DNA of 64,000 nt, from NCBI GenBank assembly GCA_037308085.1, contig CP147779.1:1888001-1952000 (forward strand), given 5' to 3'. The notes under the pieces were generated by a model. It was given only the letters and a program-made list of their open reading frames with translations. It did not search any database and was not told the origin of the DNA. The stretch's first letter is position 1. Each line of letters begins with the position of its first letter. The DNA comes from Promethearchaeati archaeon SRVP18_Atabeyarchaeia-1. GTDB lineage: Archaea; Asgardarchaeota; Atabeyarchaeia; Atabeyarchaeales; Atabeyarchaeaceae. Of this stretch, positions 490-18,421 are shown piece after piece. The position numbers and the translations under genes were made by a program.

Positions 490-606
490 AGAAGACTTCC
501 AAGCTGAGTATTCTCCCCGATCTGGGACTACCGTCCTGGATCAGGGAACTCCCTCCGTTTTGCTGCGCCACAATAGCACCCCGGAAAAGGGTTCTCAAGG
601 GATCCT

Positions 607-2733: not shown

Positions 2734-2764
2734 TTAGGCAACCTTCCTTGCGCATCGGAACAGT

Positions 2765-3520
2765 CTACTTGACGTTACTCATGAAGACGCATATCTTGGG
2801 AGGCAGTAGCGTGGAATCGATGCCTATTCTCTTGTCTGTCAGTTTGATTGGCGCTCCTCGGACGATGACGAAAGGTATTCTCTCGTTGGATTCCCCCATT
2901 AGGAGCTTTGCTGCTGAGGAAATGTCGTCGATCACTGATTGGTACGTTACGCGCAGCGTTCTCCCGTAAAGGTCTTTCTTGCCAACGTAATTCCTAGCGG
3001 GCTCTAGTCCAGCAAACCCGAGCGCCACCCCTATTGTTCCCCTTCTCCCGGGAAGCAGCCCGGAGTCTGCAATAATGATGGCAACTCTCTTTCCTGTCTT
3101 GTCCTCTATCCTTCTCTTGAAGCTCCAAGCTGACTCATCGGAATCCGCTGGTGGGAGTATGTACGAGTCCCCTGGAGAGTTGGCGACATCGATGCAGGCG
3201 TTGACGCACGGGAAGCCCCTTCTTACTGCCAGCACGTATCCGGGTGATCCTGCAAGAACGGAATCAGACTCGTCCAAGATCAACTGCATCAAGGATGATG
3301 GGAGGGCAAGCTTTCTCCCCATCTCTTCCGCCTTCCTCGAGGCCACGACGTCTGAGACTTGGCGAACCCGCTTCTCAGTTACGGAAACGATTTTAGAAGC
3401 AACGACGATTACGTCTCCATCTTCGAGAGGGAGTTGCATCCTCCCTATCGAGCTGAGGAAGATTTCTGAAGCATCGTCACTCTCAGTGATTAAGGGCGTT
3501 TTTACGGCGAAAACCTCCAT
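2765..3520 (-). CDS. cofE: Coenzyme F420-0:L-glutamate ligase (CofE family)
   Basis: DGDVIVVASKIVS, NACID, IIADS..R.GTIGVALG, GESNERIPFVIVRG; start placed at MEVFAVK (ORF track start 3589). Confidence 0.85.
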   Translation of the reverse strand: MEVFAVKTPLITESDDASEIFLSSIGRMQLPLEDGDVIVVASKIVSVTEKRVRQVSDVVASRKAEEMGRKLALPSSLMQLILDESDSVLAGSPGYVLAVRRGFPCVNACIDVANSPGDSYILPPADSDESAWSFKRRIEDKTGKRVAIIIADSGLLPGRRGTIGVALGFAGLEPARNYVGKKDLYGRTLRVTYQSVIDDISSAAKLLMGESNERIPFVIVRGAPIKLTDKRIGIDSTLLPPKICVFMSNVK

Positions 3521-3767
3521 TGCACTATCCAAGAGAATCATGCACCTCCAGGCGGAAGTGATCATGCTTACAGCAAGATGGTGATACAATCATCAGTATT
3601 TAGAGTTCGCCTTTGGCGCTTATCTAACTCTCCAGAAGTTGCCCTCGTCCTGGAATCACTGCGAGAGTCGCACGCCGATCGCAACTCTTTTACAAAGGCG
3701 CCCCTAGTAGGATGGGTATCGATTAGACTGTTCCCAGCAGGTTCTTCTAGTGAGGTGAAACCGTGAT

Positions 3768-4235
3768 ATGGTCCGAGTGCTAAATCCTATCTTCACTGCG
3801 GTGGGAATCTGCTCCCTGCTGAGTTCGCTGGACAAGATGGGAGTGACCCCGACGCTTGTCGCCCGCCAGGCCTCAAAGGTGATTGGCCCCGTGTTGGCGG
3901 ACTTCGGAAAGATGACACTAGGCACCACGAACATGGAGGCGCCGACCCTGAACGAGTTTGTCGTAGGTCTGAGAATGGCTCTAAAGATGGGTGGGCTTGC
4001 AGACCCAGATGCTCTAGAAATGGTCAAGACCGAGGATGGCTTCACAGTCAAATGGGTTGACTGCGGGCTAAAGGACATGGCCAATGCTGCTAAGCTGTTC
4101 GGGTACAAGGACTGTCCGCTTTGTCTTCCTGGCGTCATAGTCGCTGGTCTGCTCGGTGCCCTGCATGTCGCAGACGTCAGCGATATGAAGGTTGAGAGAA
4201 ACGGAAATACGTGCCTAATGCACATTCAGATCTGA
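3768..4235 (+). CDS. Hypothetical protein, V4R/L-domain-like with Cys ligands
   Basis: 155 aa ORF with good upstream GGTGA; DC...CPLC...TC pattern in the C-terminal half resembles V4R-like small-molecule-binding domains. Confidence 0.5.
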   Translation: MVRVLNPIFTAVGICSLLSSLDKMGVTPTLVARQASKVIGPVLADFGKMTLGTTNMEAPTLNEFVVGLRMALKMGGLADPDALEMVKTEDGFTVKWVDCGLKDMANAAKLFGYKDCPLCLPGVIVAGLLGALHVADVSDMKVERNGNTCLMHIQI

Positions 4236-4430
4236 CATGGGGCACCATTTTTCGGCCAGCCAACTCTCAACTATCTTTTCATCAAATACCGGTCGGGTGT
4301 TGCGTGGTCTCATCAGACACTACCCTGAATCGCATGAAGAGTGGGAGTTATCAGATCCAGTTGTCCCAGGAGTCTTGATGGCAAATGTAATATCAGGCGA
4401 CGAACACGAGGATAGGAGGGTGACATTGAT

Positions 4431-5396
4431 TTGCGTATCAGGGCTCTTGGGCTGCATTTGACGGATCGCTGTAATGCTCGCTGCGAGCACTGCGCCTTTC
4501 ACTGTGGACCTCAAGGCAAAGGCGTGATGGCTTTAGGTGAGGCAAAAAAGTACCTTCGACAAGCCACGGAAGAAGGGGCAGACATGCTCTGCATAAGTGG
4601 CGGCGAGCCACTTCTCTTTCTCAGCACTGTAACCAGCATCGCTCGAGAAGCAAGAAGGCTCCGAATGCAGAGTATCTGGGTTTTCACTAATGCTCACTGG
4701 GCGGCGGATCGTGAATCGACGAGGAGAATACTGGTACGGCTCAAGAATGCCGGTGTCGGCAGACTCTGCCTAGGCGCTGATGGATTCCACCGGCCATTCG
4801 TTGCGACCGAGAGAGTTCGTTCGGCCATGCTTGTTGCTGCGGACTTGGGTTTGGAGCTTACTCTAGATACCCGCATCATGGGCGTGACGCTCCAGGAAGA
4901 CAACCAGATCAACAAGTCAACCGTGGAGATCCTTCGTGAACTCGGAGATTTGAGAAACATCGAAACGTGGCGCGGCCCCCCGCTCTACGTCGGCCGCGCA
5001 GCGGAGGTCCTGCCCCAGAAAATGCAGAGAGAGCCAACCTTTGTTGATGGGGCATGCATGGGCCCATGGGCGGGTGGAAGCTGGGTAAACCCAGTGGGCG
5101 TTGACATCGACTCGCATGGGGAAGTCACGCTATGCCCTGGCATAAGCATTGGCAACGCAAGAACGCAAACACTGAGCAAGATCCTGTCTGACTACAAGCC
5201 ATCGCAGCACCGCATAATCCGTGAGCTCACGGCAGGCGGACCTAAAGGCTTGTGGCGCCTGGCTTCCGACCTGGGCTACAGGCACCAAGGAGGTTACTTG
5301 AGTGCATGTCACTTGTGCTACGACGTGCGGAAGTTCATCCGATCAGATTATCCAGCGGAGCTGGCACCTATTTCCTGCTACGAAGAGCTTTGTTAA
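4431..5396 (+). CDS. Radical SAM protein with C-terminal Cys-rich (SPASM/twitch-like) region
   Basis: CNARCEHC, SGGEP, TNAHWA, C-terminal C..LCPG and CHLC. Confidence 0.9.
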   Translation: MRIRALGLHLTDRCNARCEHCAFHCGPQGKGVMALGEAKKYLRQATEEGADMLCISGGEPLLFLSTVTSIAREARRLRMQSIWVFTNAHWAADRESTRRILVRLKNAGVGRLCLGADGFHRPFVATERVRSAMLVAADLGLELTLDTRIMGVTLQEDNQINKSTVEILRELGDLRNIETWRGPPLYVGRAAEVLPQKMQREPTFVDGACMGPWAGGSWVNPVGVDIDSHGEVTLCPGISIGNARTQTLSKILSDYKPSQHRIIRELTAGGPKGLWRLASDLGYRHQGGYLSACHLCYDVRKFIRSDYPAELAPISCYEELC

Positions 5397-5490
5397 GGGT
5401 TTTCCAGTCGAGCTCTTGAGCGCCACATTGTGGACATTCTTCGGACGCTATTTGAATTCTCTGCCTGCATCTTGCGCATTCTTTGGTTTT

Positions 5491-5754
5491 CTACCATTTC
5501 GGTATCACCGAGTTTCGCTCGATATCTTTTCGCCGTTCTGTGATCCTGTCATAGACATCCGAGTCTTCATCTGCGCGGAGTTCGACCGTTAGGAACTTGG
5601 GACATGTGTAAACGTCCATGGGTGCGGCTTCCTCCTCCCCCCAGCGCCATATTGGAAGGTCTATCCTGAAGGGAAACCAACCCATATGCAGCATCTCCGT
5701 GCTGCAGATTCGACAGTTCGGAGAAGACAGCCTATCAGGATATTCTCCCATCAA
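5491..5754 (-). CDS. Small Zn-ribbon-like protein, possibly decaying
   Basis: CRIC...YTCPKF..VELRA; the fourth Cys is replaced by Phe. Confidence 0.5.
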   Translation of the reverse strand: MMGEYPDRLSSPNCRICSTEMLHMGWFPFRIDLPIWRWGEEEAAPMDVYTCPKFLTVELRADEDSDVYDRITERRKDIERNSVIPKW

Positions 5755-5857
5755 ATCATCAGCCGCTTCTAGAAACGTAGAAATTCATGGAAGTCAACCA
5801 CGCTTCTATTCGGGGCGTTGGCAGCTTGTTCGGTCCCGCCTGCTCCCCCGGCCTTAG

Positions 5858-6706
5858 GCTCTCTGGAGAGCAAAGCTCAATAGAGCAAACCTAAGCAAAG
5901 CCATACTCCGGAGAGCAGATCTTGGCGAGGCAATTCTCTTGGGAACAAAGCTAAGCGGAGCAAACCTGAGCCAGGCAAATCTATCTGGCGCGAATCTAAG
6001 TGAAGCAGATCTCAGCGGAGCAAACCTAAGTGAAGCAAACCTTGAGAAAACGGTGCTAGTTGAGGTGGACCTAAGAAAGGCATCCCTTACGAATTGCCGG
6101 GTTTACGGGATCTCTACATGGAACGTGGATCTGGAGAATGCGACTCAGTTGAATCTGATCATCACCCGTAGCGCTGAGCCCAAGATTACGGTGGACTACC
6201 TCAAGGTTGCGCAATTTGTGTACCTGCTTCTCAACAACAGGGAGATCCGGGAGGTTATTGACACTATCACTTCAAAGGTCGTGCTAATTCTAGGTAACTT
6301 TTCATCAGATCGGAAGGCAATCTTAGATGCGATCCAGGATGAACTACGTAAGCACAACTACTTGCCCATCTTGTTCGACTTCGGGAAACCTGCCAACCGG
6401 GATCTCACCGAAACGATCTCTATTCTCGCACACATGGCGCGATTTGTCATAGCTGATATTACGGATGCCGAGAGTGTTCCCCAGGAGTTGGAGCGCATAG
6501 TCCCAGAGCTACCATCGGTTCCAGTTCAACCGCTGTTGCAGGCCCCAGCCAAGCCGTACGGCATGTTCGAGCACTACCCGCGGTATCCCTGAGTTCTTGA
6601 GATACGTAGGTATGAGAGCCCTGGCAAGTTGCTGGCGTCCCTCCCAGAAAAAGTGATCGCTCCTGCCGAGGCGAAGGCGAAGGAGCTGCAGAAGAGACAG
6701 CAGTGA
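5858..6706 (+). pseudogene. Pentapeptide-repeat protein with C-terminal alpha/beta (TIR/NDT-like) domain; 5'-truncated with an internal TGA
   Basis: A(N/D)LxxA repeats run in frame from 5858 with no start codon; TGA at 6590-6592 is followed in frame by VLEIRRYES...EKVIAPAEAKAKEL to a stop at 6704-6706. Confidence 0.8.
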
Positions 6707-6887
6707 CCGGACAATTCTGCGCCGCCAAAGTCATTGCTCGTGATACAACTGCGGAACTGTGGCAGTGGTTCACTTTCATGGTAGTCCCTTCAACCCCATA
6801 AGGTTTCGCCATCAACGTACCTCTATAGTTGACTTGGGATGCATAGTCTATGAGTAAGCAATTGGCGTGCACGGCAGGTGGGGCGCG

Positions 6888-7061
6888 ATGGTCGTCAACG
6901 AGGAGTGGTGGAGGGGCTTCGAGGACTGCGCCGAGATTGTCATGGGCATCCTCGACGTTGCCCGGGACCTACCGGCCGCCAAGCATAATGTGGATAAGAT
7001 GCTTGCCTTAGTGAAGGAGAAGAAATTCTCGAAGATTAAGGAGGAGCTGGGTCTACTCTGA
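6888..7061 (+). CDS. Small helical hypothetical protein (copy 1 of a pair)
   Basis: RGFEDC...KEKKFSKIKEELGLL; similar to 9644..9850; GGTGG upstream of ATG. Confidence 0.7.
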   Translation: MVVNEEWWRGFEDCAEIVMGILDVARDLPAAKHNVDKMLALVKEKKFSKIKEELGLL

Positions 7062-7072
7062 CGGTTCACACA

Positions 7073-8884
7073 TCATGTATGAGAAGACTTTATCCTGCTT
7101 GCCATCTCGTTGCCGATAGTCTCTTCACGTGCCTTCAGAAATTCGTCGTAATTATTGTTCTTCATAGCATCGTAAGCTCTCTCTTCAATTAAGTGCGTTT
7201 TGAGAACAATCTTCACTTTTTCCTCCGAGCCCAGTTTTTGTTTCATGAGATCTATGTATTTGGATGGTTTCTTGTTTTGTATGATGCTATTGTTTGTTGA
7301 TTCTTGAATCAAAGTTCTGTTCAGTATAGAGTTTTCTTTGGTGAGGGTGATTCCTGATTTCTTTGGAAATAGATGATGATCGTTCAATTTGACAAGCTCG
7401 ATTGACTGTCCATTATAGAAGTCCAGCGCCCCTTTTAGGGCTATCAAATTGAGTATCGCCTTGTATATGGCACCTTTCGAGGTGTCTCTCAAATTTATCT
7501 CTCTTATTCGGCTTTCAGCTTCCTTGACTACTTCAGGCACTCTTAAGTTGTCTCCAAACCAGTCCCTAACTTGGTCAAAATCCTGTTTTATGGCTGTATC
7601 ACTTGCTCCTGCATATCTTTCTGTGAATATAGAACTCCAATACCAAGTGTCCAACTTCTTGAAGTCATTAGGAGCCTTGCAATGTTCAAGTATTGCCGCC
7701 AATGTTGCTACTACAGGCCTGTATGGTAATAGGTTTGGTCTGATAACGCCATATCCAGTCTGGGTGTTTTGTAGTCTTCTCAAAGAATGATTGAGCAAAC
7801 TACAAGATGAGTTCCAGTTGTCCTTGTCAATTTTGAACACTTTTGAGTTCACTAGAACTTTCTTCTTCACTTCTAGAGGATTGGGTTTTTGACGCAAAGC
7901 CATAATTTGAAGTATGATTTTTGGGTATTCCTCATCATCTTCTTCGGAGAACTTATTCACTTCACTTTCTGTGTCATCGAAATACTCTTTCCACCAATCT
8001 CTGAGGTTTATTTTCTGTTTGAAGAATACGGCGGTGGCAAGAGCAAACACCGAAAGCTCCACGCCTGTTCTATTAATCCTCTCGAATATCTCTGCGACCT
8101 CATAGAACTGTTTGTTTTCAAGAGTCAACGATGGGATTTTGAAACCAAACCAATGATTGAAAATATTTCTTATGGTCGCTTTTCTCTCTTTGATCTCGCC
8201 CCAAGGTTTGCTCTTCTTAGAGATGTAGTCTCCAAAATCCTCCAACCAGCTCTCTAGTTCGGAACGTGCTCCTAAGTTGGCAAAGGGTATCCGTCCATTT
8301 TCGTAGCAATATTGCTTGAATTCCTTCTTCATTAACAAATTCCCAAAATTGCCAGCCCAGTCTAGCAAGTCCTTGAAAGAGTATTTCTTAGCCCCCGACC
8401 CCATGTCTACTTCCATGTTTTTTGTTCTGTCATTTTCCGATATTGATTCGATCGAATCTTCCCAATCTTTTTGGGCGAGTCTTTCGTTGACCTTTACAAA
8501 ATATCGGATAGGGTAAGCTGCCCCTTTAGGTTCAACCTTTGGGGGACTGTAGAGAGCGTAGAACAAGGCAGTCAATCTTTGCTGTCCATCGAGCACCGCT
8601 CTTTCAACATTTTTCTCCTCTGGTTCTGATGGTAACTTTGTGTTGACTTTTTCTACTCCCTCAAAATACCGAACTCCAAAATCAAGGGTTTCAGCACGCC
8701 TTAAGAAAAGAAGGGTGCCGACGAAATAGCCGTTTAGAACTGAAACTAATAGACTTTTTATGTCAGGATTTGCCCACACAAAACTCCTTTGAAATTCCGG
8801 AAGGACACACTTTCCTTCACAGATTTCTCTAATTGGTCCTAGAGCTTCCTCAAGTTTCGGATAGGGTTCAGCCATAACACTCAC
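7073..8884 (-). CDS. DUF262 (GmrSD-like, ParB-like NTPase) protein with C-terminal DUF1524/HNH-like region; putative modification-dependent restriction enzyme
   Basis: LPEFQRSFVW, VLDGQQRLTAL, FERINRTG, C-terminal DHHLFP...N..N; visibly AT-richer than flanks. Confidence 0.9.
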   Translation of the reverse strand: MSVMAEPYPKLEEALGPIREICEGKCVLPEFQRSFVWANPDIKSLLVSVLNGYFVGTLLFLRRAETLDFGVRYFEGVEKVNTKLPSEPEEKNVERAVLDGQQRLTALFYALYSPPKVEPKGAAYPIRYFVKVNERLAQKDWEDSIESISENDRTKNMEVDMGSGAKKYSFKDLLDWAGNFGNLLMKKEFKQYCYENGRIPFANLGARSELESWLEDFGDYISKKSKPWGEIKERKATIRNIFNHWFGFKIPSLTLENKQFYEVAEIFERINRTGVELSVFALATAVFFKQKINLRDWWKEYFDDTESEVNKFSEEDDEEYPKIILQIMALRQKPNPLEVKKKVLVNSKVFKIDKDNWNSSCSLLNHSLRRLQNTQTGYGVIRPNLLPYRPVVATLAAILEHCKAPNDFKKLDTWYWSSIFTERYAGASDTAIKQDFDQVRDWFGDNLRVPEVVKEAESRIREINLRDTSKGAIYKAILNLIALKGALDFYNGQSIELVKLNDHHLFPKKSGITLTKENSILNRTLIQESTNNSIIQNKKPSKYIDLMKQKLGSEEKVKIVLKTHLIEERAYDAMKNNNYDEFLKAREETIGNEMASRIKSSHT

Positions 8885-8927
8885 ATCCCATAGAAATCCT
8901 CCCCGCCTCCGAGTCGAACTCTATACC

Positions 8928-8982
8928 TACCTGATCGCTGGGCACGTGATATATTCGTTGCGGAGGCATTGCGATATCCACA
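8928..8982 (-). repeat. 55-bp conserved element, copy A, with promoter-like core; upstream of the DUF262 gene
   Basis: 51/55 identical to 12806-12860; minus strand reads ...GCAACGAATATATCACG... (BRE/TATA-like). Confidence 0.85.
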
Positions 8983-9272
8983 AGTCTCTTTAATCGCGTA
9001 TCATCCCCGACTATGCCATGGCATAAGGAGCGTACCAGAGAAACAGGGGCCTGTGTGGGACTCGAGTTGGAGCGGGTTCCTCGGGGACCTCAGAAAGGAA
9101 GTTGAGCTGTGTTGAATAGAAAGAAAGAGGATTGAGGTGGCTAGCCCACCTTGAGCTTTCCTTTGATCTGGTTCATACTGCCCCTGAGGTGCTTGAGGTT
9201 CTGCCCAATTTCGTCGACATCTCTTGTGACGAATATTGTCTTCATGTAGAGGGCTAAGAGAGACATGTTCAC

Positions 9273-9500
9273 TTAAGTAGGAGCAAAGAACTCGACATAA
9301 CCGCAATTATCGCATTTGTAGGCACGAAGTGATTTTCCTGTCCGAGCTTCAAACTGTACGTCTCGTTCTCCTCGAAGGCCCTCTTCAGTTAGTTCCTCAT
9401 CTTTTGCACTATGCCACCGAACTATGCGATCAAAACCTATTACACCCTCATGCATCGCAAACCCACATTTTGAACAATGCTTGTCTTTTACCATAAACAT
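9273..9500 (-). CDS. Small Zn-ribbon protein
   Basis: CSKCGFAMHEG...LRAYKCDNCGYVEFFA. Confidence 0.75.
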   Translation of the reverse strand: MFMVKDKHCSKCGFAMHEGVIGFDRIVRWHSAKDEELTEEGLRGERDVQFEARTGKSLRAYKCDNCGYVEFFAPT

Positions 9501-9643
9501 CCTCTATTTTGACAGGTGATTTCCCCATCAAAATATGTTTCGCATTCGTTGCGAGATTCACACATGGAATTCGGATACCTATTGCGGCTTTGCCCCAAAG
9601 AGAGACCCTCACTTCTGCATAGGACTCTTGCACCTCAAATAAC

Positions 9644-9850
9644 GTGGTTGACCATTCTTGTTCTGTCGTGGATTGGACGGCGAGAGAGGCTTCGGGGTAT
9701 CGGCATGGGTTCGAGAACTGCCTAGGTCTGGTGGAGGACACCATCGGGTCCGTGAAGAGGCTGAAACAGGTGAAGAGCTACCTGCTGACGGTGCGGGCCA
9801 GCATGAAGGAGAAGAACGTCGTCCGGATAAGAGGGGACCTCGGTCTCTGA
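9644..9850 (+). CDS. Small helical hypothetical protein (copy 2 of a pair)
   Basis: HGFENC...KEKNVVRIRGDLGL aligns with 6888..7061; start uncertain. Confidence 0.65.
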   Translation: MVDHSCSVVDWTAREASGYRHGFENCLGLVEDTIGSVKRLKQVKSYLLTVRASMKEKNVVRIRGDLGL

Positions 9851-9859
9851 TACCCTGGA

Positions 9860-10963
9860 TTACTTTCCCCAGATTCTCTTTTTGATGGCCGATAGGACCC
9901 CCATCCTCCTATTCGTGTTTGTTACTGCTCTGAGCTGCAATGCTTCCTCAAGCGTCCTTGGTCTTATGAATTTCTTCTTTAGGCCCTCGTAGGGTGGAAA
10001 GGCGCCGTGTGTGCCCAAGACTCTTCTCGCATCGGCTACCATCTCTAGTTGTTCAGGGCTCCAGTGGCGACCAACAAAGCTGTCCTTCTTGAGAGCATAT
10101 CGGCCTTTAACCGGCTGATACCTCATTGGATAGGACACTACACCCCACTCCATCGCCTTCTGGAGACGATGCAGCAAGTCTTCCGGGGTATCATTGAAGT
10201 TGTAGAGGAGATAGACCAGGATGTCTCTCGGCCTCACGCCTGCCTGGATCAGCATTTGTATGCCGTCTTCCACTTCCTGTTCCTGCTTTGGTCGATCGAA
10301 GGCAGTCCTTATCATATAGGTTCTGAGTGATGCGAGAACCTCAGCCTTTTCCGGGGTCATTAGCCTCGTGTCTATTCCCTGGTTGAAGTCGACTGGCAGA
10401 TTCAAACTGCGGATCTCAAGGAGAATCTCCTTCCAGTAGGGGGAGGCCAGCATATTGTTGTCCCAGAGGATGATCTTCTTGTGGTCGGGACAGATGAGAT
10501 CCTTGATCGTCTTCCTGCATTTGAACTCCGGCTCCAGTTTCGGGACTGCGCAGAAGGGGCAGTCGTTGATGCATCCTCTTGAACTGAAAACTATGCTTGC
10601 ATTCCAGTCCGGAACCAGGGAATAGTCAGGTATCATGCCTTCGGCTTGCTCGAAGAGCCCCCTATGGATTGTCGCTCCAGACTTCGCTGCATGCTCCGGC
10701 ATGAGCGTTGCGTATATGCCGCCTAGAATGATTTCAGCCTTCGGATATTGCTGCTGATAGAATCTGACAGCCTCGTGCACTGGCTTCCAGGCGTATGTGA
10801 AGAGACTCGTCACATAGATATTGTCTGGGGTCCACGGCGCAGCGACGCATCCCTTCTGAAAGCAGACCTCATCGCCAAGCATCCTGTGATAAGTGGAGAT
10901 CTTCAGAAGCCCAAGAGGAGGGAACCTAGAATAATAGTTTGGCTGAACCAAGAGGGTGCGCAT
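9860..10963 (-). CDS. Radical SAM protein with N-terminal B12-binding-like domain
   Basis: PPLGLLKIS, ILGGIYATL, SRGCINDCPFC, WDNN, DFNQG, YPMRYQP. Confidence 0.9.
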   Translation of the reverse strand: MRTLLVQPNYYSRFPPLGLLKISTYHRMLGDEVCFQKGCVAAPWTPDNIYVTSLFTYAWKPVHEAVRFYQQQYPKAEIILGGIYATLMPEHAAKSGATIHRGLFEQAEGMIPDYSLVPDWNASIVFSSRGCINDCPFCAVPKLEPEFKCRKTIKDLICPDHKKIILWDNNMLASPYWKEILLEIRSLNLPVDFNQGIDTRLMTPEKAEVLASLRTYMIRTAFDRPKQEQEVEDGIQMLIQAGVRPRDILVYLLYNFNDTPEDLLHRLQKAMEWGVVSYPMRYQPVKGRYALKKDSFVGRHWSPEQLEMVADARRVLGTHGAFPPYEGLKKKFIRPRTLEEALQLRAVTNTNRRMGVLSAIKKRIWGK

Positions 10964-11004
10964 AAAGGGTATATGTCTCCGTGATCTTTATTTGTCTTGC
11001 TTCC

Positions 11005-12768
11005 TCATGGAGGGCATTTCTGTGACAACTCAATCATCCTGTATACCAACCCTACTGTTGCAGAGAACATAGTCATCACATTACATCGCTCAGCTTTGGT
11101 CAGATCTTCGAACCATTTGAAGGAATCGCTTCCCTTATCATGCTTCTGAGCGTTGATGAATAAGTCCTGAAGCGCTTGTATTGTCACACCTAATTCCGGA
11201 TTTCGTCTCGTCTCTTGTGGGTCCGTTGAGGAGCCGCTTATCGTCAATTTTCGAGTCGAATGAGAAATTACTTTTTCCCACCCATATGCGGCTTTGGAGA
11301 GACCAAATATTTCATTAGTGCTCAGACCAGTCTTCTTCTTGAGTAGCTCCACAATCTTATCCAGCATGCTTGTTTCAGGCTGTAGCTTTCCTTCCGGCGT
11401 GAGCTTGTCGAAGTCGCTTCTTACAGGTTTGGGCAAAAGACCTAACATACTCTTCTGCAGCTCCTTTGCTTTGGCTAGATCATCTTCTTCAGGCAGTTTC
11501 TTCTTGATCTCGGCTTCCAGTGTCGCAACTTCCTTAGCAGCTTGTTTGCACTTGTCATCTATGACCTGCTTATGAGGCTGAAGCGCAGGGTCTGTTGCGA
11601 AACTTCTGCCGCTACTCATAGCTTTCTTTGCTTTCTCAAGACATTTCTTGGCTGAATTGGTATTTCCCTTTGCCAAATGGTGCTTTGCCTTCTCGATCGA
11701 TTTCGCCTGGTTCTTATCACTTTGGTACCGATTACTGATCTGGAACTCATCCACGAAACTACCAACCTGCTGGAAGAACGGAGCAACAAGCTCGGTACTC
11801 GGCACAAAGTTGTTCCTTGCTGCATTCTCAACTATCTTCGGAGTAACTATGTGGATCTCTCCATATTGCCATTCACTATGCCCACTTGAGAGGTTCTCTA
11901 TGAAATGTTCATCACCGATAGTGAAACCCTTCTTCTTGAAAAAGATGCCCTTGTTCGGCTCGCCTAGTTCCTTATTCTCCTTGTTTGTCAGAAACCAGCC
12001 GAAGGCCACAATTTCGCCGTTTACCTTGAACTCCTTGGGGACAAGATCATTCACAAGGAATATATCGACATCGTCAGGCGGCCTGGATATCGGGTCGCCT
12101 TCAAACTCAATCACAACTTCAGGTAGCTCAACGTCGTGCTCTTTCAGGTAATCGTTCACCTTGTCGGCAAGCAAGAATTTCTTGTTGAAGGGTGCGGGAA
12201 CAGTTCGAGAAAGGTACTTGATTATCTTCTCTTTCTGGAACATAGATTTATGTGTTGTCAGGATTGAGCAAAGTCTTACAACCGTGAAGTGATCTTTGAC
12301 AGACTCTCCTGAGTCAAGATTTGTTTCCTCGATTTCCCCCGTTGACTCTGATAACACATCGGCTGCCGATCTATTGGTTCCATAACTTTGGCGCAGCTTC
12401 TTGCAATCTATTTCTATTCTCAGTTTCTTCTCATTCTTCTTCTTGGTTGTTATAACGATCTTCTCGCAGACTGGGACGCCGCTCCAGATGCCGATACCTC
12501 TCCACCCAACATTTTCAGGTGGCTTGTACGATAGTCCAACGCTCAAAGCCTCTTTCAGCTTGGCTTTATTCATTCCGCTGCCATCGTCGTGAATGACCAG
12601 ATCAAGTGATTCTGGACTCTTAGTCTCGAAGTAGATCTTCACCTTCTTTGGATCGGCGTCCAGACTGTTCTGGACATATTCCCTCAGACAATTCAGATTA
12701 TCAGAATAGAGGCCTTCTGTGATAGCTTCAAGTAGCTTTGCACCAAAATTGTCAATCTCAAACTTCAC
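11005..12768 (-). CDS. GHKL (HSP90/MORC-like, HATPase_c) ATPase with C-terminal helical domain
   Basis: LREYVQNSLDA, IHDDGSGM, GWRGIG Bergerat-fold motifs, then GEIHIV..NAARNNF (S5-like) and a coiled region. Confidence 0.9.
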   Translation of the reverse strand: MKFEIDNFGAKLLEAITEGLYSDNLNCLREYVQNSLDADPKKVKIYFETKSPESLDLVIHDDGSGMNKAKLKEALSVGLSYKPPENVGWRGIGIWSGVPVCEKIVITTKKKNEKKLRIEIDCKKLRQSYGTNRSAADVLSESTGEIEETNLDSGESVKDHFTVVRLCSILTTHKSMFQKEKIIKYLSRTVPAPFNKKFLLADKVNDYLKEHDVELPEVVIEFEGDPISRPPDDVDIFLVNDLVPKEFKVNGEIVAFGWFLTNKENKELGEPNKGIFFKKKGFTIGDEHFIENLSSGHSEWQYGEIHIVTPKIVENAARNNFVPSTELVAPFFQQVGSFVDEFQISNRYQSDKNQAKSIEKAKHHLAKGNTNSAKKCLEKAKKAMSSGRSFATDPALQPHKQVIDDKCKQAAKEVATLEAEIKKKLPEEDDLAKAKELQKSMLGLLPKPVRSDFDKLTPEGKLQPETSMLDKIVELLKKKTGLSTNEIFGLSKAAYGWEKVISHSTRKLTISGSSTDPQETRRNPELGVTIQALQDLFINAQKHDKGSDSFKWFEDLTKAERCNVMTMFSATVGLVYRMIELSQKCPP

Positions 12769-12805
12769 TTACTCAATCCCCCTCACTTCCTTGCTGAACT
12801 ATAGT

Positions 12806-12860
12806 TACCTGATCGCTGGGCGCGTGATATATCGGTTGCGGAGGCATTGCGACATCCACA
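12806..12860 (-). repeat. 55-bp conserved element, copy B, upstream of the GHKL gene
   Basis: 51/55 identical to 8928-8982. Confidence 0.85.
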
Positions 12861-13136
12861 GGATTTTCGAATCTGAGACCATGCTCGGCTACGACACAGG
12901 GACCCAACTTAGAGTCCTTCAACATCTCAGACTACGCGGATTCTCTTAATGTAGATGACCCTTGCGTAAAGTCCGGCGCTTATGAGATTTGGATAAGTGA
13001 CGTGCTCAACAGGCGCACTTGCCAGTCTGATGGTTTTTCTTCGACTGGATCACCTGGACAAGCCAGAACAAAAAAGAGAGAGGGGGAAGACAGGACTCAC
13101 TAGTCTCCAGCTCATCTTCCCTCTGCGATATGTTCA

Positions 13137-13667
13137 CTAGTAGGGGCCTGGAACGAAGAAAGACAATACTGGGAAGTCCCAGTAGTGAACGCCACTGCCG
13201 TCACTGTAAACCCATGATATTACTGCCTTGTAGTTGCCGCCGCCACCACCAGGTCCGTAGGTATATGAGAAGCTTTTGTCGGCTGGTCCATCAAGCCCAA
13301 CGTACTCATTCTGGTTTGTAGCAGGATTCCACATCCAATTGTAGTCCCTGGCAAGCTTGGAGTAGATCACTTGATTGTAGTCCTTCTGGATGACGCCTAA
13401 TATCATTGATCTCAATTTCCACTGTGGGGAATTGCCATCGTAGTTGAGGATTATGTGCCACTCGAACTTCACCGTGTAGTAGTAGACGGGCCCTGATTGC
13501 CAGACGTTAACGGTAATTCTACCCCATGCGTAGTCATCGTTGAGCCAATGGCCCTGTTCCTGAACCAAGGTAGTTGCTGATGCCTGAGTTACTGCGCCCG
13601 CTGAAAAGGTTAGCAAGAAGATCGATAGAACGACAAAGACCATGATGCTCTTACTCATTCTATTCAT
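13137..13667 (-). CDS. Secreted beta-rich hypothetical protein
   Basis: Signal peptide MNRMSKSIMVFVVLSIFLLTFSAGA; aromatic-rich body; GGAGG before the ATG at 13667; T-rich tract downstream. Confidence 0.7.
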   Translation of the reverse strand: MNRMSKSIMVFVVLSIFLLTFSAGAVTQASATTLVQEQGHWLNDDYAWGRITVNVWQSGPVYYYTVKFEWHIILNYDGNSPQWKLRSMILGVIQKDYNQVIYSKLARDYNWMWNPATNQNEYVGLDGPADKSFSYTYGPGGGGGNYKAVISWVYSDGSGVHYWDFPVLSFFVPGPY

Positions 13668-14068
13668 ACTTGTCCTCCACTCAACTGCTTTTCTGTTTCG
13701 TTCTCTTTCTGCCCCTCTTCTGGGGCTAGGCGGTGACCGCCTCCAAAGCATTCAGCTTTGGTTTTGCCCCAATGCATAGGCGGAGCCATCCCCTCCCGGC
13801 ACGGGTCCACCCCTACAATTCTATCCCCTGACGTATAATATGGCGTTTTTCAGGCTGTTATACTTTACTGTTATACCGCTAAACCGCAAGCCTTGAGTAA
13901 GGACTATTCCGTAGACGACAGCAAGGGAGAAAGAAAGAACTTGATAGGAGGTGACAAGAAGTCCTTAATTCGGCAACGCCTGCGCGTTGACCGACAAATT
14001 TATTTAAGATAACAGTGGATATCTTAGCACGCTCTACTATGATAGGGGGTGTAATAGAGGGGTTGAAA

Positions 14069-14281
14069 ATGCCAGTTGAATCACGTGAAATACGCATCGT
14101 CATACCGCCTGAGATAAATGAACTCTTTGCCAAGCAGCCACACATGATCTTCAAAACACATCCTATTCCTGGCCTGTGGCCAGTTACTCTAGAGATTCTC
14201 AAAAACATCGAGGCCCTGAAAAAGCTAGCAGCCAGCAAGGAATTCAACGAGAAGTACGACATCGTAATAATACCGAAGTGA
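14069..14281 (+). CDS. Small (70 aa) hypothetical protein directly upstream of a radical SAM gene
   Basis: TATA-like TTTATTTAAG near 14000; GAGGGG before ATG; MPVESREIRIVIPPE...HPIPGLWPV. Confidence 0.7.
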   Translation: MPVESREIRIVIPPEINELFAKQPHMIFKTHPIPGLWPVTLEILKNIEALKKLAASKEFNEKYDIVIIPK

Positions 14282-14360
14282 GTAGATTGACAAATGGGTG
14301 CAATTGTGGCACCCATTCTTTTGTTGTTTACTCTGCAAACTGAGTTAACAGGGTGGATAC

Positions 14361-15413
14361 ATGTCATCCGAACTCGAAGCACCGTTCTTAAAGAACATCG
14401 GTTTCATGCTCACCTACAAATGTACGATATCGTGTCCACATTGCATTGTTGAGGCTGGACCTCACCGTAAGGAAGAAATGGATCTTGATATGGCTCTGGA
14501 CTGGGTCAAGCAGGCAAGTACCTTTAGAAATGGACATATTGTCGGTCTAGCGTTGACTGGGGGCGAGCCGTTCTATGACCTGGAAAAACTCGCGAAGATC
14601 TCCGAATTTGCCAATAGTCTAGGGTTTGTTGTTTCGGTCGTAACTAACGGCTTTTGGGCAACAACAAGGGATGTCGCGCAAAAGACCATCGCAAGACTTC
14701 CAGCAATTCAGATGATTTCACTTAGCACAGATACTTACCACAGAAGGGCGATTCCACCTCAAAATGTCAAGAATGGCATTTGGGCGGCCAAGCAGCTTGG
14801 GCGGCTGTATAACATTGCGGTCTGTACAGACAACGAAGAGAACCCAGAGTTCAAGGAGATTATTAATGACTTGCGTGCGAATGGGGAAGCCGAAAACACT
14901 AGGACCGCCATAACATACCCTGTAGGCAGAGCGCAGAGGTATGAGGGTCATCTTAATTTTGAGATTGAGGCTGAACCTACGGTCGGGGCGTGTACCATGG
15001 CGAGTTCACCAGTGGTTTTTCCAGATGGGAAAGTAAATGCTTGCATAGGACCAGTGCTGACCTTGCCCTCAGCTCACCCACTCTTCCTCGGGAACTTGCG
15101 AATAGATCGGTTGAATGATATATTAGATCGGGCTGAAATGAATCTTTTCCTACAAACAATACGTGTATGGGGACCACAGAAATTGCAGTCGCTTTTGAAA
15201 GAGCATGGTTTAGGCGATTTGCTCCCCCGAGAGTACATTAAAGACTGCATATGCGATTGCTGCTACAAATTGCTCTCTGACCCGCGGATCGTTGACGCTC
15301 TTAAGAGCATTCTGCAGGATGAGAAGATGGTGAGGATCATAGCTTATGCGAGGGTGTACTATCTTAAAGAGACATTTATGGCGGAACGACTTGACTTGGT
15401 GACAAAGGGATAG
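14361..15413 (+). CDS. Radical SAM protein (same subfamily as 4431..5396)
   Basis: CTISCPHC, TGGEP, TNGFWA, C-terminal C..ACIG and CICDCC. Confidence 0.9.
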   Translation: MSSELEAPFLKNIGFMLTYKCTISCPHCIVEAGPHRKEEMDLDMALDWVKQASTFRNGHIVGLALTGGEPFYDLEKLAKISEFANSLGFVVSVVTNGFWATTRDVAQKTIARLPAIQMISLSTDTYHRRAIPPQNVKNGIWAAKQLGRLYNIAVCTDNEENPEFKEIINDLRANGEAENTRTAITYPVGRAQRYEGHLNFEIEAEPTVGACTMASSPVVFPDGKVNACIGPVLTLPSAHPLFLGNLRIDRLNDILDRAEMNLFLQTIRVWGPQKLQSLLKEHGLGDLLPREYIKDCICDCCYKLLSDPRIVDALKSILQDEKMVRIIAYARVYYLKETFMAERLDLVTKG

Positions 15414-15498
15414 TCTTTGGTTAACCCGAGCTAATGGGCTTCTATGTGTGTTTTGGCTGCCGAGCGCTCGCCTAGCCTGTGGCACAGAAAGTTCGTGG

Positions 15499-15529
15499 AG
15501 AGGTTTTCTCTTTTCCGGTCATCCCAAGC
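15499..15529. repeat. 31-bp perfect direct repeat, copy 1
   Basis: AGAGGTTTTCTCTTTTCCGGTCATCCCAAGC, identical at 16739-16769. Confidence 0.9.
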
Positions 15530-15548
15530 TCGCCCGCTTATGAACACT

Positions 15549-16391
15549 CTAGCTCCCGGTGGCCTTGTCCTTGAGTTTCGCTATCAATACTGTGAACCAT
15601 GGAATGACGCAGATGGCGAACGGAATGAGGCACAGTATGACAATGCCAACATTGTATAACAGATTGGTCGAAAAATCGGTGAAGATGGCCTCCACAATAT
15701 GAAGAAGGTAGGCTGTCCACAGAAAACCTACGAAGAAGACATTAGCTCTAAAGATGTGCCTTGTCCATCTCATGAGTCGACTCTTCTCGTAAGGTTGTTT
15801 TAGTGTGAGGTGGCAAGAGAGCCCCAATACAAGTTCATATGCGAATATGTGTGGATAGCTTTTCTCATTTAACAGTTGGACACGTCTATAGAAGAGGAAC
15901 CAGGAAAGAACAAACACCAAAGAGGCTGTCATCAGGATATAGGAAGTCAAATCTGTAATCCTATTGATGACGGTATACATGAAGAAGAGAAAGGAGACTG
16001 GAACGAAAAGTGAACTCATCGTGAACATCTGATGACTTCTTTCATCAATCTGTTGGCTGAGAAACTCATGATTCCTCCAATACTTCTTGCATAGAAGACT
16101 GCGGTCCGGTAGCCTTGCCATCCGGGCGGCGAATTTGCGGTAGAGCGATTCCACATTTTGCTTCTCCTGTTTCCTTAGCGACTTCAGGTTTTCTGCTGCT
16201 ATCTCTGCGAATACCCATTCCATCCCTCTCAGGTTTTTGGCTTTCTCTTCTTTTGCCTCCTTGATCAGCGTTGAGATTTCGGCGGGCGCGTCGGCTACCT
16301 TCCTGGTCCTTCGATTCATGCCTCTTCCTCTTTGCCACGTTCGGATTCCCTTTTCAGAGTCATTGTCTTCCTTGCTTGTTCCCGTCGTCAT
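15549..16391 (-). CDS. Hypothetical multi-pass membrane protein with charged N-terminus
   Basis: Basic/helical first ~115 aa followed by about 4 hydrophobic segments. Confidence 0.7.
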   Translation of the reverse strand: MTTGTSKEDNDSEKGIRTWQRGRGMNRRTRKVADAPAEISTLIKEAKEEKAKNLRGMEWVFAEIAAENLKSLRKQEKQNVESLYRKFAARMARLPDRSLLCKKYWRNHEFLSQQIDERSHQMFTMSSLFVPVSFLFFMYTVINRITDLTSYILMTASLVFVLSWFLFYRRVQLLNEKSYPHIFAYELVLGLSCHLTLKQPYEKSRLMRWTRHIFRANVFFVGFLWTAYLLHIVEAIFTDFSTNLLYNVGIVILCLIPFAICVIPWFTVLIAKLKDKATGS

Positions 16392-16450
16392 GATCCCCCC
16401 ACATGTGAGTCAGATTTTTCATTCGACCTCTCCTTCTCGACAGGGATCCT

Positions 16451-16639
16451 CTAGATTTCGGTCAGCCTCTCAGCGGTTCCTTTCCACGTCTGCCTCATTT
16501 TCTCGATCCTGTCGAAGCATTCGTTAACGCGCCCGCTCACGAGGGTCAGCTCGTACTGCAGCTTCTGAACCTGCTTCTTGACGAGTCCAAGGTCAAGTTC
16601 CAGACCGTGTACTTTGTCTTTCTCATTCATCCCCCTCAC
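16451..16639 (-). CDS. Small coiled-coil hypothetical protein
   Basis: Heptad pattern LELDLGLVKKQVQKLQYEL; GGAGGG upstream. Confidence 0.55.
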   Translation of the reverse strand: MRGMNEKDKVHGLELDLGLVKKQVQKLQYELTLVSGRVNECFDRIEKMRQTWKGTAERLTEI

Positions 16640-16738
16640 CCTCCTAAGTAGATATCAGTCTGTTGCCAGTGTCTTTCCTATCCCAGCTAACTTCCCAGCG
16701 GAGGGTGCTTGGTCTCCAATCCCCCCTCTTCCCTGAAT

Positions 16739-16769
16739 AGAGGTTTTCTCTTTTCCGGTCATCCCAAGC
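16739..16769. repeat. 31-bp perfect direct repeat, copy 2
   Basis: Identical to 15499-15529. Confidence 0.9.
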
Positions 16770-16817
16770 ACCCTCATTCGCACAATTCAGTTAGATGAAT
16801 CACTCTTTTGCATCAGT

Positions 16818-18010
16818 CTACCTTCTGGAGGCGTACAGGTATTCACGCCTCATCTGCTGCCAAGAGGCGCCCGCACTCACGGCAAACGGTTGGCCGCATA
16901 GGCGCAGGCCACGGTGGAGTATCGCCAAGCTGGCGAGCCTATCCCGGTTGTAGTCCACGCTACAGTTCCTGCATCTGCTTATTGCCCAAGCTGGGTGCTT
17001 CAAGGTTCCACCGCAGACGGGGCACTTCGATGAGGTCCCCCTCGGGCTAACGTAGAAAGTCCTCTAACGGCTCTTATACTCAACCATTCTTTGAAACTCT
17101 CTATATGGCTAGCGGTTAAGGTACGTCCTAAACCTCCTGCTGCTTGCCAGGCCCTTCCTTCCTCTTCCCTGCCTTATCCCCTTCAGGTCCTCGAAGACGA
17201 AGGATGTGCTAGGGTTCTTCCGGACGATCTGGGTTGACAGCTTGTGGAGCGCGTCCTTAACCCTGTCTCTCTGTCTGCCCCTTGTCGCCTCAAGCTTCCT
17301 CTCCCTCTTCCCGGGGTTCCTAACGTGCAGCCGGATGAGCCTCCGCCTCCTCGAGAAGTCGTTCTGAACTTGCACTACCCTGTTAAGGGAGTTGGTGTGG
17401 GGTGACTCCAGCCCTATGCTGCCGCTGCTGAACGCTGAGGAGTCTGCGCTGTGGAAGTTGAGGTCCAAACCAGCCAGCCTCGCAGCGAGGGGCTTCCCGC
17501 CACCACGCCCTACGGCGAAGGTGACGCAGAGTTTTCTGTCCGTCAACAGGATCTCGCATGCCTCCCCTGCAGCGCTGTACTCGCTCCACTTCTTGTGGCC
17601 TGGAATGAAAGTGATATATTCATAGGTGAAAGGCTTCAGGGTGACCCTGACGGTCACGCTTCCGTCGGGGTTCGGTGAGAGGCGGAAGAGCTCGGAGTCG
17701 ATCCTCATGGCGAGCCTCCCATGCCTCTTCCTGTACGACCGTAGGAGCGCCACGGCCGTTCTGCAGAGGGGGTTGACGTGGTGCCTCGCATACTCGCAGC
17801 GGGTGTCGAACCAAGGCTTCACCCTCCTCCTCAGCGCAACCGGGTTGGGGATCAAGAGGCGACCGCTTATCTTGGCTGAGGCGTATGCCTGGGCGAGAGA
17901 CGTCGCTAGTGCGTCCTTCATGTCTTCGAGGTATTTGAGTATGCTGCTGGATGGCTGGTACTTTACTGCGATGGTTCTCTTTTCGCCTTCTCTGGTCTTC
18001 CACCTATGAT
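16818..18010 (-). pseudogene. tnpB: TnpB-family RNA-guided nuclease pseudogene with two in-frame TAG stops
   Basis: GLDLN (RuvC-I), FVFEDL (RuvC-II), then LNR*PYREFQRMVEYKSR*RTFYVSPRGTSSKCPVCG...CRNC...NRDRLAS (Zn finger, RuvC-III) in one frame; stops at 17109-17111 and 17064-17066; 5' boundary approximate. Confidence 0.85.
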
Positions 18011-18421
18011 GCTTCCCTGGATCTGCTGCTGCCACTGCGGTGCCGATAGTCCCGCCTCCTTGACTGCTTGTTGGAGCTTCCTGCTCGCCTCGTAATTTCT
18101 CGGTCTTTGTGGCTTCTCGCTGGGCTCCTGCCTGCTCTGTCCCCGCCCTGCATGGCCTCGGCGCAGGCACCCAAGCGACCTAAGGGTGCTTCCCTGGAAG
18201 AGCATAGCTGTTCCACATTCGTCTACATGTAATTGCGTCTATTTATACAGTCCATCCGAACGGTTCGTTTCCCTCCCAAGATGATGTTAGGTGATGAACG
18301 TTGAAGCCAATATCGACGTCTCGCCGGGTAGTAAGATGCCTAGCTTTTTTGCGTGGCAAGGCTAGCTGAACGGAGTCGAAAACGAAGCCTATAAATAATT
18401 CTCCCAGCCGTAGTACCGCCC

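Follow-up and report, generated by a model that had tools for sequence, protein, structure and literature searches.

A two-gene GHKL ATPase and radical SAM cassette in an Atabeyarchaeia accessory island, a candidate DNA-directed modification or defence module

We describe here a two-gene cassette encoding a GHKL+S5 ATPase and a radical S-adenosylmethionine (SAM) protein, and weigh the possibility that it is a DNA-directed modification or defence module. The cassette lies in a 64,000-nucleotide stretch of the genome of Promethearchaeati archaeon SRVP18_Atabeyarchaeia-1 (GenBank assembly GCA_037308085.1, contig CP147779.1, positions 1,888,001 to 1,952,000 of the forward strand). This stretch is called the window below, and coordinates are counted from its first nucleotide.

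Both genes are on the reverse strand. The ATPase gene (11005-12768) begins with GTG and encodes 587 amino acids (aa), and the radical SAM gene that follows it (9860-10963) begins with ATG and encodes 367 aa. The 41-bp spacer between them (10964-11004) carries a Shine-Dalgarno-like GGAGA located 14 nucleotides (nt) 5′ of the radical SAM start codon, and a scan of the spacer on the reverse strand found no terminator-like site. One operon containing both genes is the best explanation of this arrangement. The pair had been singled out in an original prediction made from the sequence, which described two co-directional genes 41 bp apart, with intact Bergerat and CxxxCxxC motifs and without a methyltransferase or a recognisable nuclease. 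This description holds throughout: the coordinates are exact in the open reading frame (ORF) listing, the motifs were confirmed by 16-homologue alignments of each protein, and scans of both proteins with Pfam, PADLOC and NCBIfam detected no methyltransferase or nuclease family.

The ATPase matches Pfam HATPase_c_3 over residues 28-127 with 59.9 bits (cut-off, 25; E value, 3.5e-16) and satisfies the GHKL motif test (motif I, ExxxNxxD; motif II, DxGxG; motif III, GxxGxG). E30/N34/D37, D61/G65, and G88/G91/G93 are invariant in the 16-sequence alignment, and G63 is nearly invariant. The structure model (predicted local distance difference test score [pLDDT], 84) was aligned using VIA with GRP94 (Z score, 21.1), MORC3 (19.5), SMCHD1 (18.9), and MutL (16.4), with 281 to 316 residues aligned over model residues 5-410, and Foldseek returned matches to Hsp90, TRAP1, and MORC. 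Motifs and model together point to a MORC/MutL/Hsp90-type GHKL+S5 module in which the predicted S5 transducer directly follows the GHKL domain. The C-terminal ~260 aa are family-specific and all-helical in the model, and K542 and H543 are invariant in the 16 homologues. When the whole model was searched VIA-wide, residues 352-425 gave generic helical matches only, and residues 430-587 were barely covered. The N terminus is weakly similar to MutL, MzaB (PADLOC; E value, 6.1e-5), and PADLOC REase_II models, and residues 13-166, in the N-terminal part only, match the GHKL-type restriction enzymes BbrUII/HgiDII (E value, 3e-12). Full-length BbrUII/HgiDII identity, including the C-terminal nuclease part, was rejected (NCBIfam NF050001; 45.9 bits versus a cut-off of 550).

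The cluster motif of the radical SAM protein, C131/C135/C138, is invariant in its 16-homologue alignment. The structure model (pLDDT, 84) combines an N-terminal Rossmann-like (B12-binding/MTTase-N-like) domain with a radical SAM barrel. Pfam scores are below the cut-offs for both B12-binding (21.2 versus 32.1 bits) and Radical_SAM (PF04055; 16.9 versus 29.5 bits); the cluster motif and a partial TIM barrel place the protein in the radical SAM superfamily. No NCBIfam family matched it, and neither did any PADLOC family at E values up to 1. The Foldseek neighbours of the model are MgmA (9ccb), TsrM (6wte), MiaB (7mjy), AprD4, CysS (9n1b), and TokK (7kdx), with template modelling (TM) scores of 0.48 to 0.61; E values for the class B enzymes among them (MgmA, TsrM, TokK, and CysS) range from 6.6e-10 to 4e-6. 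MgmA, a methanogen protein methylase, is the best match, but the fold fits MiaB, a methylthiotransferase, about as well as it fits the cobalamin-dependent enzymes MgmA and TsrM (TM score, 0.56 to 0.61). The originally predicted label of "B12-type" is plausible from the model: the likeness to MgmA and TsrM speaks for it, and the subthreshold B12-binding score and the equal closeness of MiaB speak against it. A MiaB/RimO-type methylthiotransferase was also considered and rejected, as no invariant cysteine precedes C131 and the NCBIfam methylthiotransferase models gave E values above 0.1; judged from the alignment, a MiaB-type auxiliary cluster is unlikely.

The radical SAM protein belongs to the PHROG 9298 family (phrog_9298; E value, 7.8e-73; residues 4-332). 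At least 1,084 longer relatives of ~650 aa were found at E values up to 1e-20, mostly in Bacteroidota and Bacillota (proteins P0243-P0362). These carry ~100 extra N-terminal and ~200 extra C-terminal residues, for which Pfam, PDB, and Atlas offered no explanation; the JGI label "PUA-like" was not confirmed.

Full-length homologues of both proteins are numerous, and the hits to the radical SAM protein number 4,110. We sampled 80 radical SAM-anchored genome loci and 72 ATPase-anchored metagenome loci, and each locus was scored for both families. Conservation of the pair was counted in the 51 loci that contain a complete ATPase followed by 400 bp or more of downstream sequence. In 45 of these 51, a radical SAM gene comes immediately downstream on the same strand, and 5 of the remaining 6 have one within 3 kb. 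Across 46 distinct pairs, the pairwise identities of one protein correlate with those of the other (r = 0.81; Mantel p = 0.001). The co-occurrence check proposed with the original prediction thus finds the pair retained, and the objection that it might not be conserved fails. A profile search of 1.84 billion representatives gathered the full-length ATPase into a few dozen clusters at 50% identity, nested in a broader GHKL clade of 365 clusters (E values up to 1e-30), most of which are without the C-terminal domain. The distribution of the pair is patchy and crosses domains, including methanogens, Bathyarchaeia, Thermoplasmatota, and Bacillota, and many of the hosts are methanogens.

The ATPase-linked radical SAM proteins form one clade (support, 99), and the protein from the window falls outside it. 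Its closest relatives (P0004-P0009) are 63 to 78% identical to it, and its identity to the radical SAM proteins of the partner clade is ~12 points below the ATPase-based prediction (roughly 3.5 standard deviations). An approximately unbiased (AU) test of a single clade comprising all ATPase-linked radical SAM proteins together with that of the window and its six relatives gave a p-AU of 0.050, by which a single origin is neither rejected nor established. The radical SAM protein of the window may belong to a deep sister lineage, or it may have been swapped.

The surroundings of 53 pairs were surveyed, giving 142 neighbours. No family occurs in more than 3 of the 142; there is no conserved third gene beside the pair, and no conserved metabolic neighbour was found. 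The neighbours mix housekeeping genes, insertion sequence (IS) and integrase genes, which flank the pair in several loci, and scattered defence genes (PtuA, TmtA, AriA, PbeA, and methylases). In most loci, as in the window, the pair stands alone, and a minority of pairs abut DISARM-like cores.

Across the modules in which these families occur, the constant element is the radical SAM protein, not the ATPase. Within four genes of the radical SAM gene in 75 radical SAM-anchored genome loci, a GHKL protein of the ATPase's clade is present in 23 loci, a DGQHR/DndB-like protein in 21, an unannotated 344-aa family, often with SNF2, in 15, a ResIII helicase with an SMC-like ATPase in 10, DrmABC-like genes in 6, and an Eco57I-like methylase in 4. 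The association of GHKL and radical SAM proteins recurs at great distance and in a different gene order on proteobacterial plasmids, where an operon with the order PIN-like/GHKL/DGQHR/radical SAM/GHKL is found on pNL1 (locus L170, 58383-68740) and on rhizobial plasmids (also locus L169). The plasmid radical SAM protein is about 540 aa long and 31% identical to that of the window, both plasmid GHKL proteins, which are of a second GHKL clade, match the ATPase family profile (hhalign probability, 99.3 to 99.5), and the plasmid DGQHR proteins are homologous to archaeal ones. The Prokaryotic Genome Annotation Pipeline labels the products of this operon only as "ATP-binding" and "radical SAM" proteins. 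On pNL1, an additional 769-aa DGQHR protein is encoded convergently to the operon.

DISARM consists of the DrmA helicase, the DUF1998 protein DrmB, the phospholipase D (PLD) protein DrmC, and a DNA methyltransferase. Relatives of the radical SAM gene share operons with homologues of the first three. In Methanoregula, Methanoculleus, and related loci of methanogens, the order is DrmA-like/DrmB-like/PLD/1116-aa protein/radical SAM/DGQHR (loci L042, L043 [492-12500], L045, and L062; L110 is also listed). The DrmA homologue matches 7s9v_A (E value, 4.6e-39), and the DrmB homologue matches 7s9v_B (E value, 2.8e-6). The 1116-aa protein (c10) has no Pfam, PDB, or plasmid match, contains no NPPY motif, and is unlike an Eco57I-type methylase, and no methyltransferase was recognised in the DrmABC-linked loci L042, L043, L045, L062, L110, and L119. 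The remaining gene of the operon being without methylase features, the radical SAM and DGQHR proteins therefore stand in place of the DISARM methyltransferase. Some GHKL-radical SAM pairs also abut a DrmABC-type core (loci L026, L034, L110, and L119). The window differs from DISARM in this respect, as no DrmA, DrmB, DrmC, or methyltransferase was found among the neighbours of the pair there. Radical SAM goes unmentioned in a 2025 survey of YprA/DISARM-type systems.

Among the viral contigs of IMG/VR, at least 513 carry a relative of the radical SAM protein, and its phage carriers include phiCT453B and a Bacteroides LoVEphage. The homologue in Marinitoga camini virus 1 is 46% identical, and those in Clostridium, Bacteroides, and Methanomassiliicoccales viruses are about 30 to 35% identical. 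The viral gene is typically a lone gene in the early/replication region, just before the terminase genes. In 80 viral loci, a GHKL gene is present in 3 and a DGQHR gene in 0, with no recurrent neighbour family, and searches of viral contigs recovered no member of the ATPase family. The same asymmetry, solitary in viruses and partnered in cells, separates the orphan methyltransferases of phages from cellular restriction-modification (R-M) systems. By this analogy, a solitary viral radical SAM gene and no viral ATPase argue that the radical SAM protein may act by itself and would not be harmful to replicating DNA.

The ATPase is present in 1 of the 201 sampled genomes of the phylum and was not found in those of the same genus or family. 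A same-family genome has ~0.7 kb in place of window positions ~4.2 to 18.4 kb (~4224-18411; ~14 kb), and a same-genus genome lacks ~5.6 to 18.4 kb. The pair therefore lies in a strain-specific accessory island, and the cassette is horizontally mobile.

Next to the cassette is a sister module whose cargo is a DUF262/GmrSD_N gene (7073-8884). The original prediction had placed the pair in the same slot as this gene, and the two modules do share an upstream element and a paralogous convergent ORF. The copy of the element before the ATPase gene (12799-12896, reverse strand) has an ATATAT (TATA-like) core and lies about 30 nt before the ATPase start, and the copy before the DUF262 gene (8921-9018) is a direct repeat of it. 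A third copy is found elsewhere in the genome, which is a single 2.8-Mb contig, upstream of a 417-aa ORF without a Pfam match (G000:C1:1655406-1655446; locus L155). The element spans 62 to 98 nt, with 78% identity over 98 nt and about 90% over 62 nt between the two copies in the window, and all three copies were aligned with one another. The three genes behind the element are unrelated, and the distance of about 30 nt is kept in each. The element is probably a shared archaeal promoter or regulatory site and, in the cassette, probably its promoter/leader. A same-genus genome holds a 91%-identical piece of it.

The convergent ORFs are on the forward strand. That behind the radical SAM gene (9644-9850; 68 aa) ends 9 nt from the radical SAM stop codon, and that behind the DUF262 gene (6867-7061; 64 aa) stops about 10 nt or less from that gene; they are paralogues (BLASTP E value, 6e-7; 30% identity over 50 aa). 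The 9644-9850 ORF is an uncertain member of the system. Between the radical SAM gene and the promoter element of the DUF262 gene is a 75-aa ORF (9273-9500, reverse strand) whose two CxxC pairs resemble a zinc ribbon. Two SPASM radical SAM genes, paralogous to each other, are located inside the island near its two ends (4431-5396 and 14361-15413). A 353-aa gene without a Pfam match (17109-18170) has two ~71 to 77% identical DNA copies on different contigs of a same-genus genome; this gene is repeated or mobile and sits at the edge of the island.

No paper, PADLOC model, or NCBIfam model was found that names the pair or the role of the radical SAM family, in agreement with the original statement that it is not a named system. 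Dpd, a system of 7-deazaguanine DNA modification, comprises the transglycosylase DpdA and the ParB-like ATPase DpdB, linked to helicase/PLD restriction genes. By analogy only, the radical SAM-DGQHR pairs resemble it as a modifying enzyme with a nucleoside triphosphate (NTP)-driven ParB-fold partner; the enzyme here, however, is a radical SAM protein, and neither protein has a PADLOC Dpd match. Pfam families of a tRNA-guanine transglycosylase-like enzyme or a preQ0 gene are likewise missing among the window neighbours, and the suggestion that the pair might be a Dpd fragment does not hold. Because the pair is mostly alone, abuts DISARM-like cores in a minority of loci, and has a radical SAM family that recurs in larger systems, it is best regarded as a modular super-system in its minimal form.

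Among radical SAM enzymes, the class B cobalamin-dependent methylases MgmA, TsrM, TokK, and CysS share the N-terminal Rossmann-like domain and the barrel, but the protein from the window is much shorter (367 aa), is subthreshold in Pfam and NCBIfam, and is equally near MiaB/RimO. Prokaryotic viperins (pVips) are also radical SAM enzymes in defence contexts. They differ in that the protein from the window has an N-terminal Rossmann-like domain, obligate partner proteins, and another fold neighbourhood, and PADLOC gives no match; the viperin analogy drawn in the original prediction is unsupported on both counts.

GHKL+S5 ATPases are established members of R-M operons, where they are tied to SF-II helicases, methylases, and nucleases; radical SAM is unmentioned (Iyer, Abhiman, and Aravind, 2008; PMC2292703). 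Like the prokaryotic MORC/paraMORC proteins described there, the ATPase has a GHKL+S5 architecture, intact ATP motifs, a sporadic and laterally mobile distribution, and R-M-type company. Unlike them, its family has its own ~260-aa helical C terminus and an almost obligatory radical SAM neighbour. HSP90/GHKL-type NTPases have been proposed as switches in conflict systems. The only text that we found pairing an HSP90-type ATPase with radical SAM in an immune context, a bioRxiv preprint of October 2026, lists a three-gene neighbourhood, "PAACC + HSP90 + Radical SAM," in one clause without accessions among effector contexts (10.64898/2026.10.19.760177). The pairs studied here have no conserved third gene among the 142 neighbours of 53 pairs, and they may or may not be of the same families.

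The most economical reading, to which we assign a probability of about 0.5, is that of a DNA-directed module for modification or defence, in which the radical SAM protein would be the catalyst and the ATPase its ATP-driven DNA partner. The radical SAM protein would use its [4Fe-4S] cluster and SAM to produce a 5′-deoxyadenosyl radical and would covalently modify DNA at a base or the backbone, possibly with cobalamin bound to its N-terminal Rossmann-like domain. The ATPase would act as an ATP-driven dimer, like MORC or MutL, that clamps or remodels DNA and either presents the substrate to the radical SAM protein or reads the resulting mark. In relatives, DGQHR/DndB-like ParB-fold proteins would replace or join the ATPase, by analogy with DpdA and DpdB, and the module could be used alone or bolted onto restriction cores such as DrmA/DrmB/PLD, a ResIII helicase with an SMC-like ATPase, or PIN. 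We infer the DNA substrate, the self-mark as product, the binding of DNA and the radical SAM protein by the ATPase, and the use of cobalamin. The modification or defence role first proposed for the pair thus gains from the conserved unit, the accessory island, and relatives found with DrmA/DrmB/PLD, DGQHR, an Eco57I-like methylase, and PIN. The division of labour proposed with it, in which the radical SAM protein marks and the ATPase senses or restricts, is hypothetical; the ATPase has no recognisable nuclease.

Several observations weigh against a DNA-directed module. The case for a DNA substrate is indirect, and Pfam, PADLOC, and NCBIfam recognised no DNA-binding or nuclease domain in either protein. 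Of the solved structures closest in fold, MgmA works on a protein, TsrM on an amino acid, MiaB on tRNA, and others on small molecules, and a PDB sequence search with the radical SAM profile returned nothing below an E value of 0.7. The C-terminal region of the ATPase is modelled as helices for which no interpretation was reached. The radical SAM protein of the window, together with six metagenomic relatives, branches apart from the main ATPase-linked clade and is a less typical partner. The viral homologues, at about 30 to 35% identity, are distant and also shorter, and their substrate may be a different one. Most neighbours of the pairs are unrelated or housekeeping genes, which makes the defence enrichment qualitative only. 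In the genome of the window, single-protein queries, which are not proof of absence, found no DrmB-like protein and no c2-type DGQHR protein; if the radical SAM protein makes a self-mark, it would thus do so without a recognised reader there.

The main rival, which we regard as rather unlikely, is a sensor-effector pair in which the GHKL ATPase senses foreign DNA or a phage protein and activates the radical SAM protein, which then makes an antiviral nucleotide or modifies or damages RNA, tRNA, or DNA, halting replication in a viperin-like or abortive manner, without self-marking. The proposal of HSP90/GHKL-type switches and the listing of "HSP90 + Radical SAM" among effector contexts (10.64898/2026.10.19.760177) favour it, as do the fold, which is as near to the tRNA-modifying MiaB as to the methylases, the absence of a nuclease or methylase beside a pair that stands alone, and the accessory-island behaviour. 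For a host-killing effector, however, common and solitary viral homologues in early regions before the terminase genes would be odd. The radical SAM protein has no viperin or other match in PADLOC, and in DrmABC operons its gene occupies the methyltransferase position. A two-gene R-M-like system, the idea of the original prediction, would have the radical SAM protein mark host DNA and the C-terminal domain of the ATPase restrict unmarked DNA. We consider this unlikely: no nuclease family or fold was detected (45.9 versus 550 in NCBIfam), the region in question is all-helical with generic helical matches only, and several pairs recruit separate nuclease-bearing cores. It draws support from the likeness of the N terminus to BbrUII/HgiDII (over the N-terminal 150 aa only) and to PADLOC REase_II, from the conservation of the C-terminal ~260 aa with the invariant K542/H543, and from the autonomy of the pair in most loci.

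A selfish or anti-restriction module would modify the DNA of the element or of the host to evade restriction, or would impose epigenetic addiction, with no defence role of its own. The abundance of solitary viral homologues, the IS and integrase flanks in several loci, and the patchy, cross-domain distribution (methanogens, Bathyarchaeia, Thermoplasmatota, and Bacillota) speak for it. Against it, viral contigs yielded no member of the ATPase family, and in cells the linkage to restriction-type cores in operons is repeated. We hold this explanation to be improbable. Least credible, and in our view very improbable, is a housekeeping role, with an Hsp90-like chaperone or reactivase assisting a radical SAM enzyme that takes part in the maturation of cofactors, lipids, or proteins. 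Against it stand the recovery from a single one of 201 genomes of the phylum, the position inside a strain-specific island, the occurrence in phages and on plasmids, the DNA-related partners (DGQHR, DrmABC, Eco57I-like, and PIN), and a survey of 53 pairs that found no conserved metabolic neighbour. For it speak the best fold match of the radical SAM protein, the methanogen protein methylase MgmA, the structural match of the ATPase to Hsp90-family chaperones, and the many methanogens among the hosts.

To our knowledge, all characterised self-marking defence systems rely on methyltransferases, phosphorothioation machinery, or deazaguanine transglycosylases. Extending the reading of a DNA-directed module, we tentatively propose, as a possibility that we would not yet favour over its negation, that PHROG 9298 and its cellular relatives are a new DNA-modifying class, in which a radical self-mark replaces methyltransferases, is delivered by interchangeable NTP-driven clamps (GHKL or DGQHR/ParB-fold), and is counterfeited by solitary phage copies. 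The links of the radical SAM family to GHKL ATPases, DGQHR proteins, and DrmABC cores run through archaea, bacteria, plasmids, and phages. If the radical SAM protein acts on DNA, both DNA epigenetics and the arms race between phages and their hosts would gain a new chemistry. If true, the proposal would assign a function to the large orphan family PHROG 9298 of phages, and likewise to a GHKL clade that is a relative of the eukaryotic MORCs.

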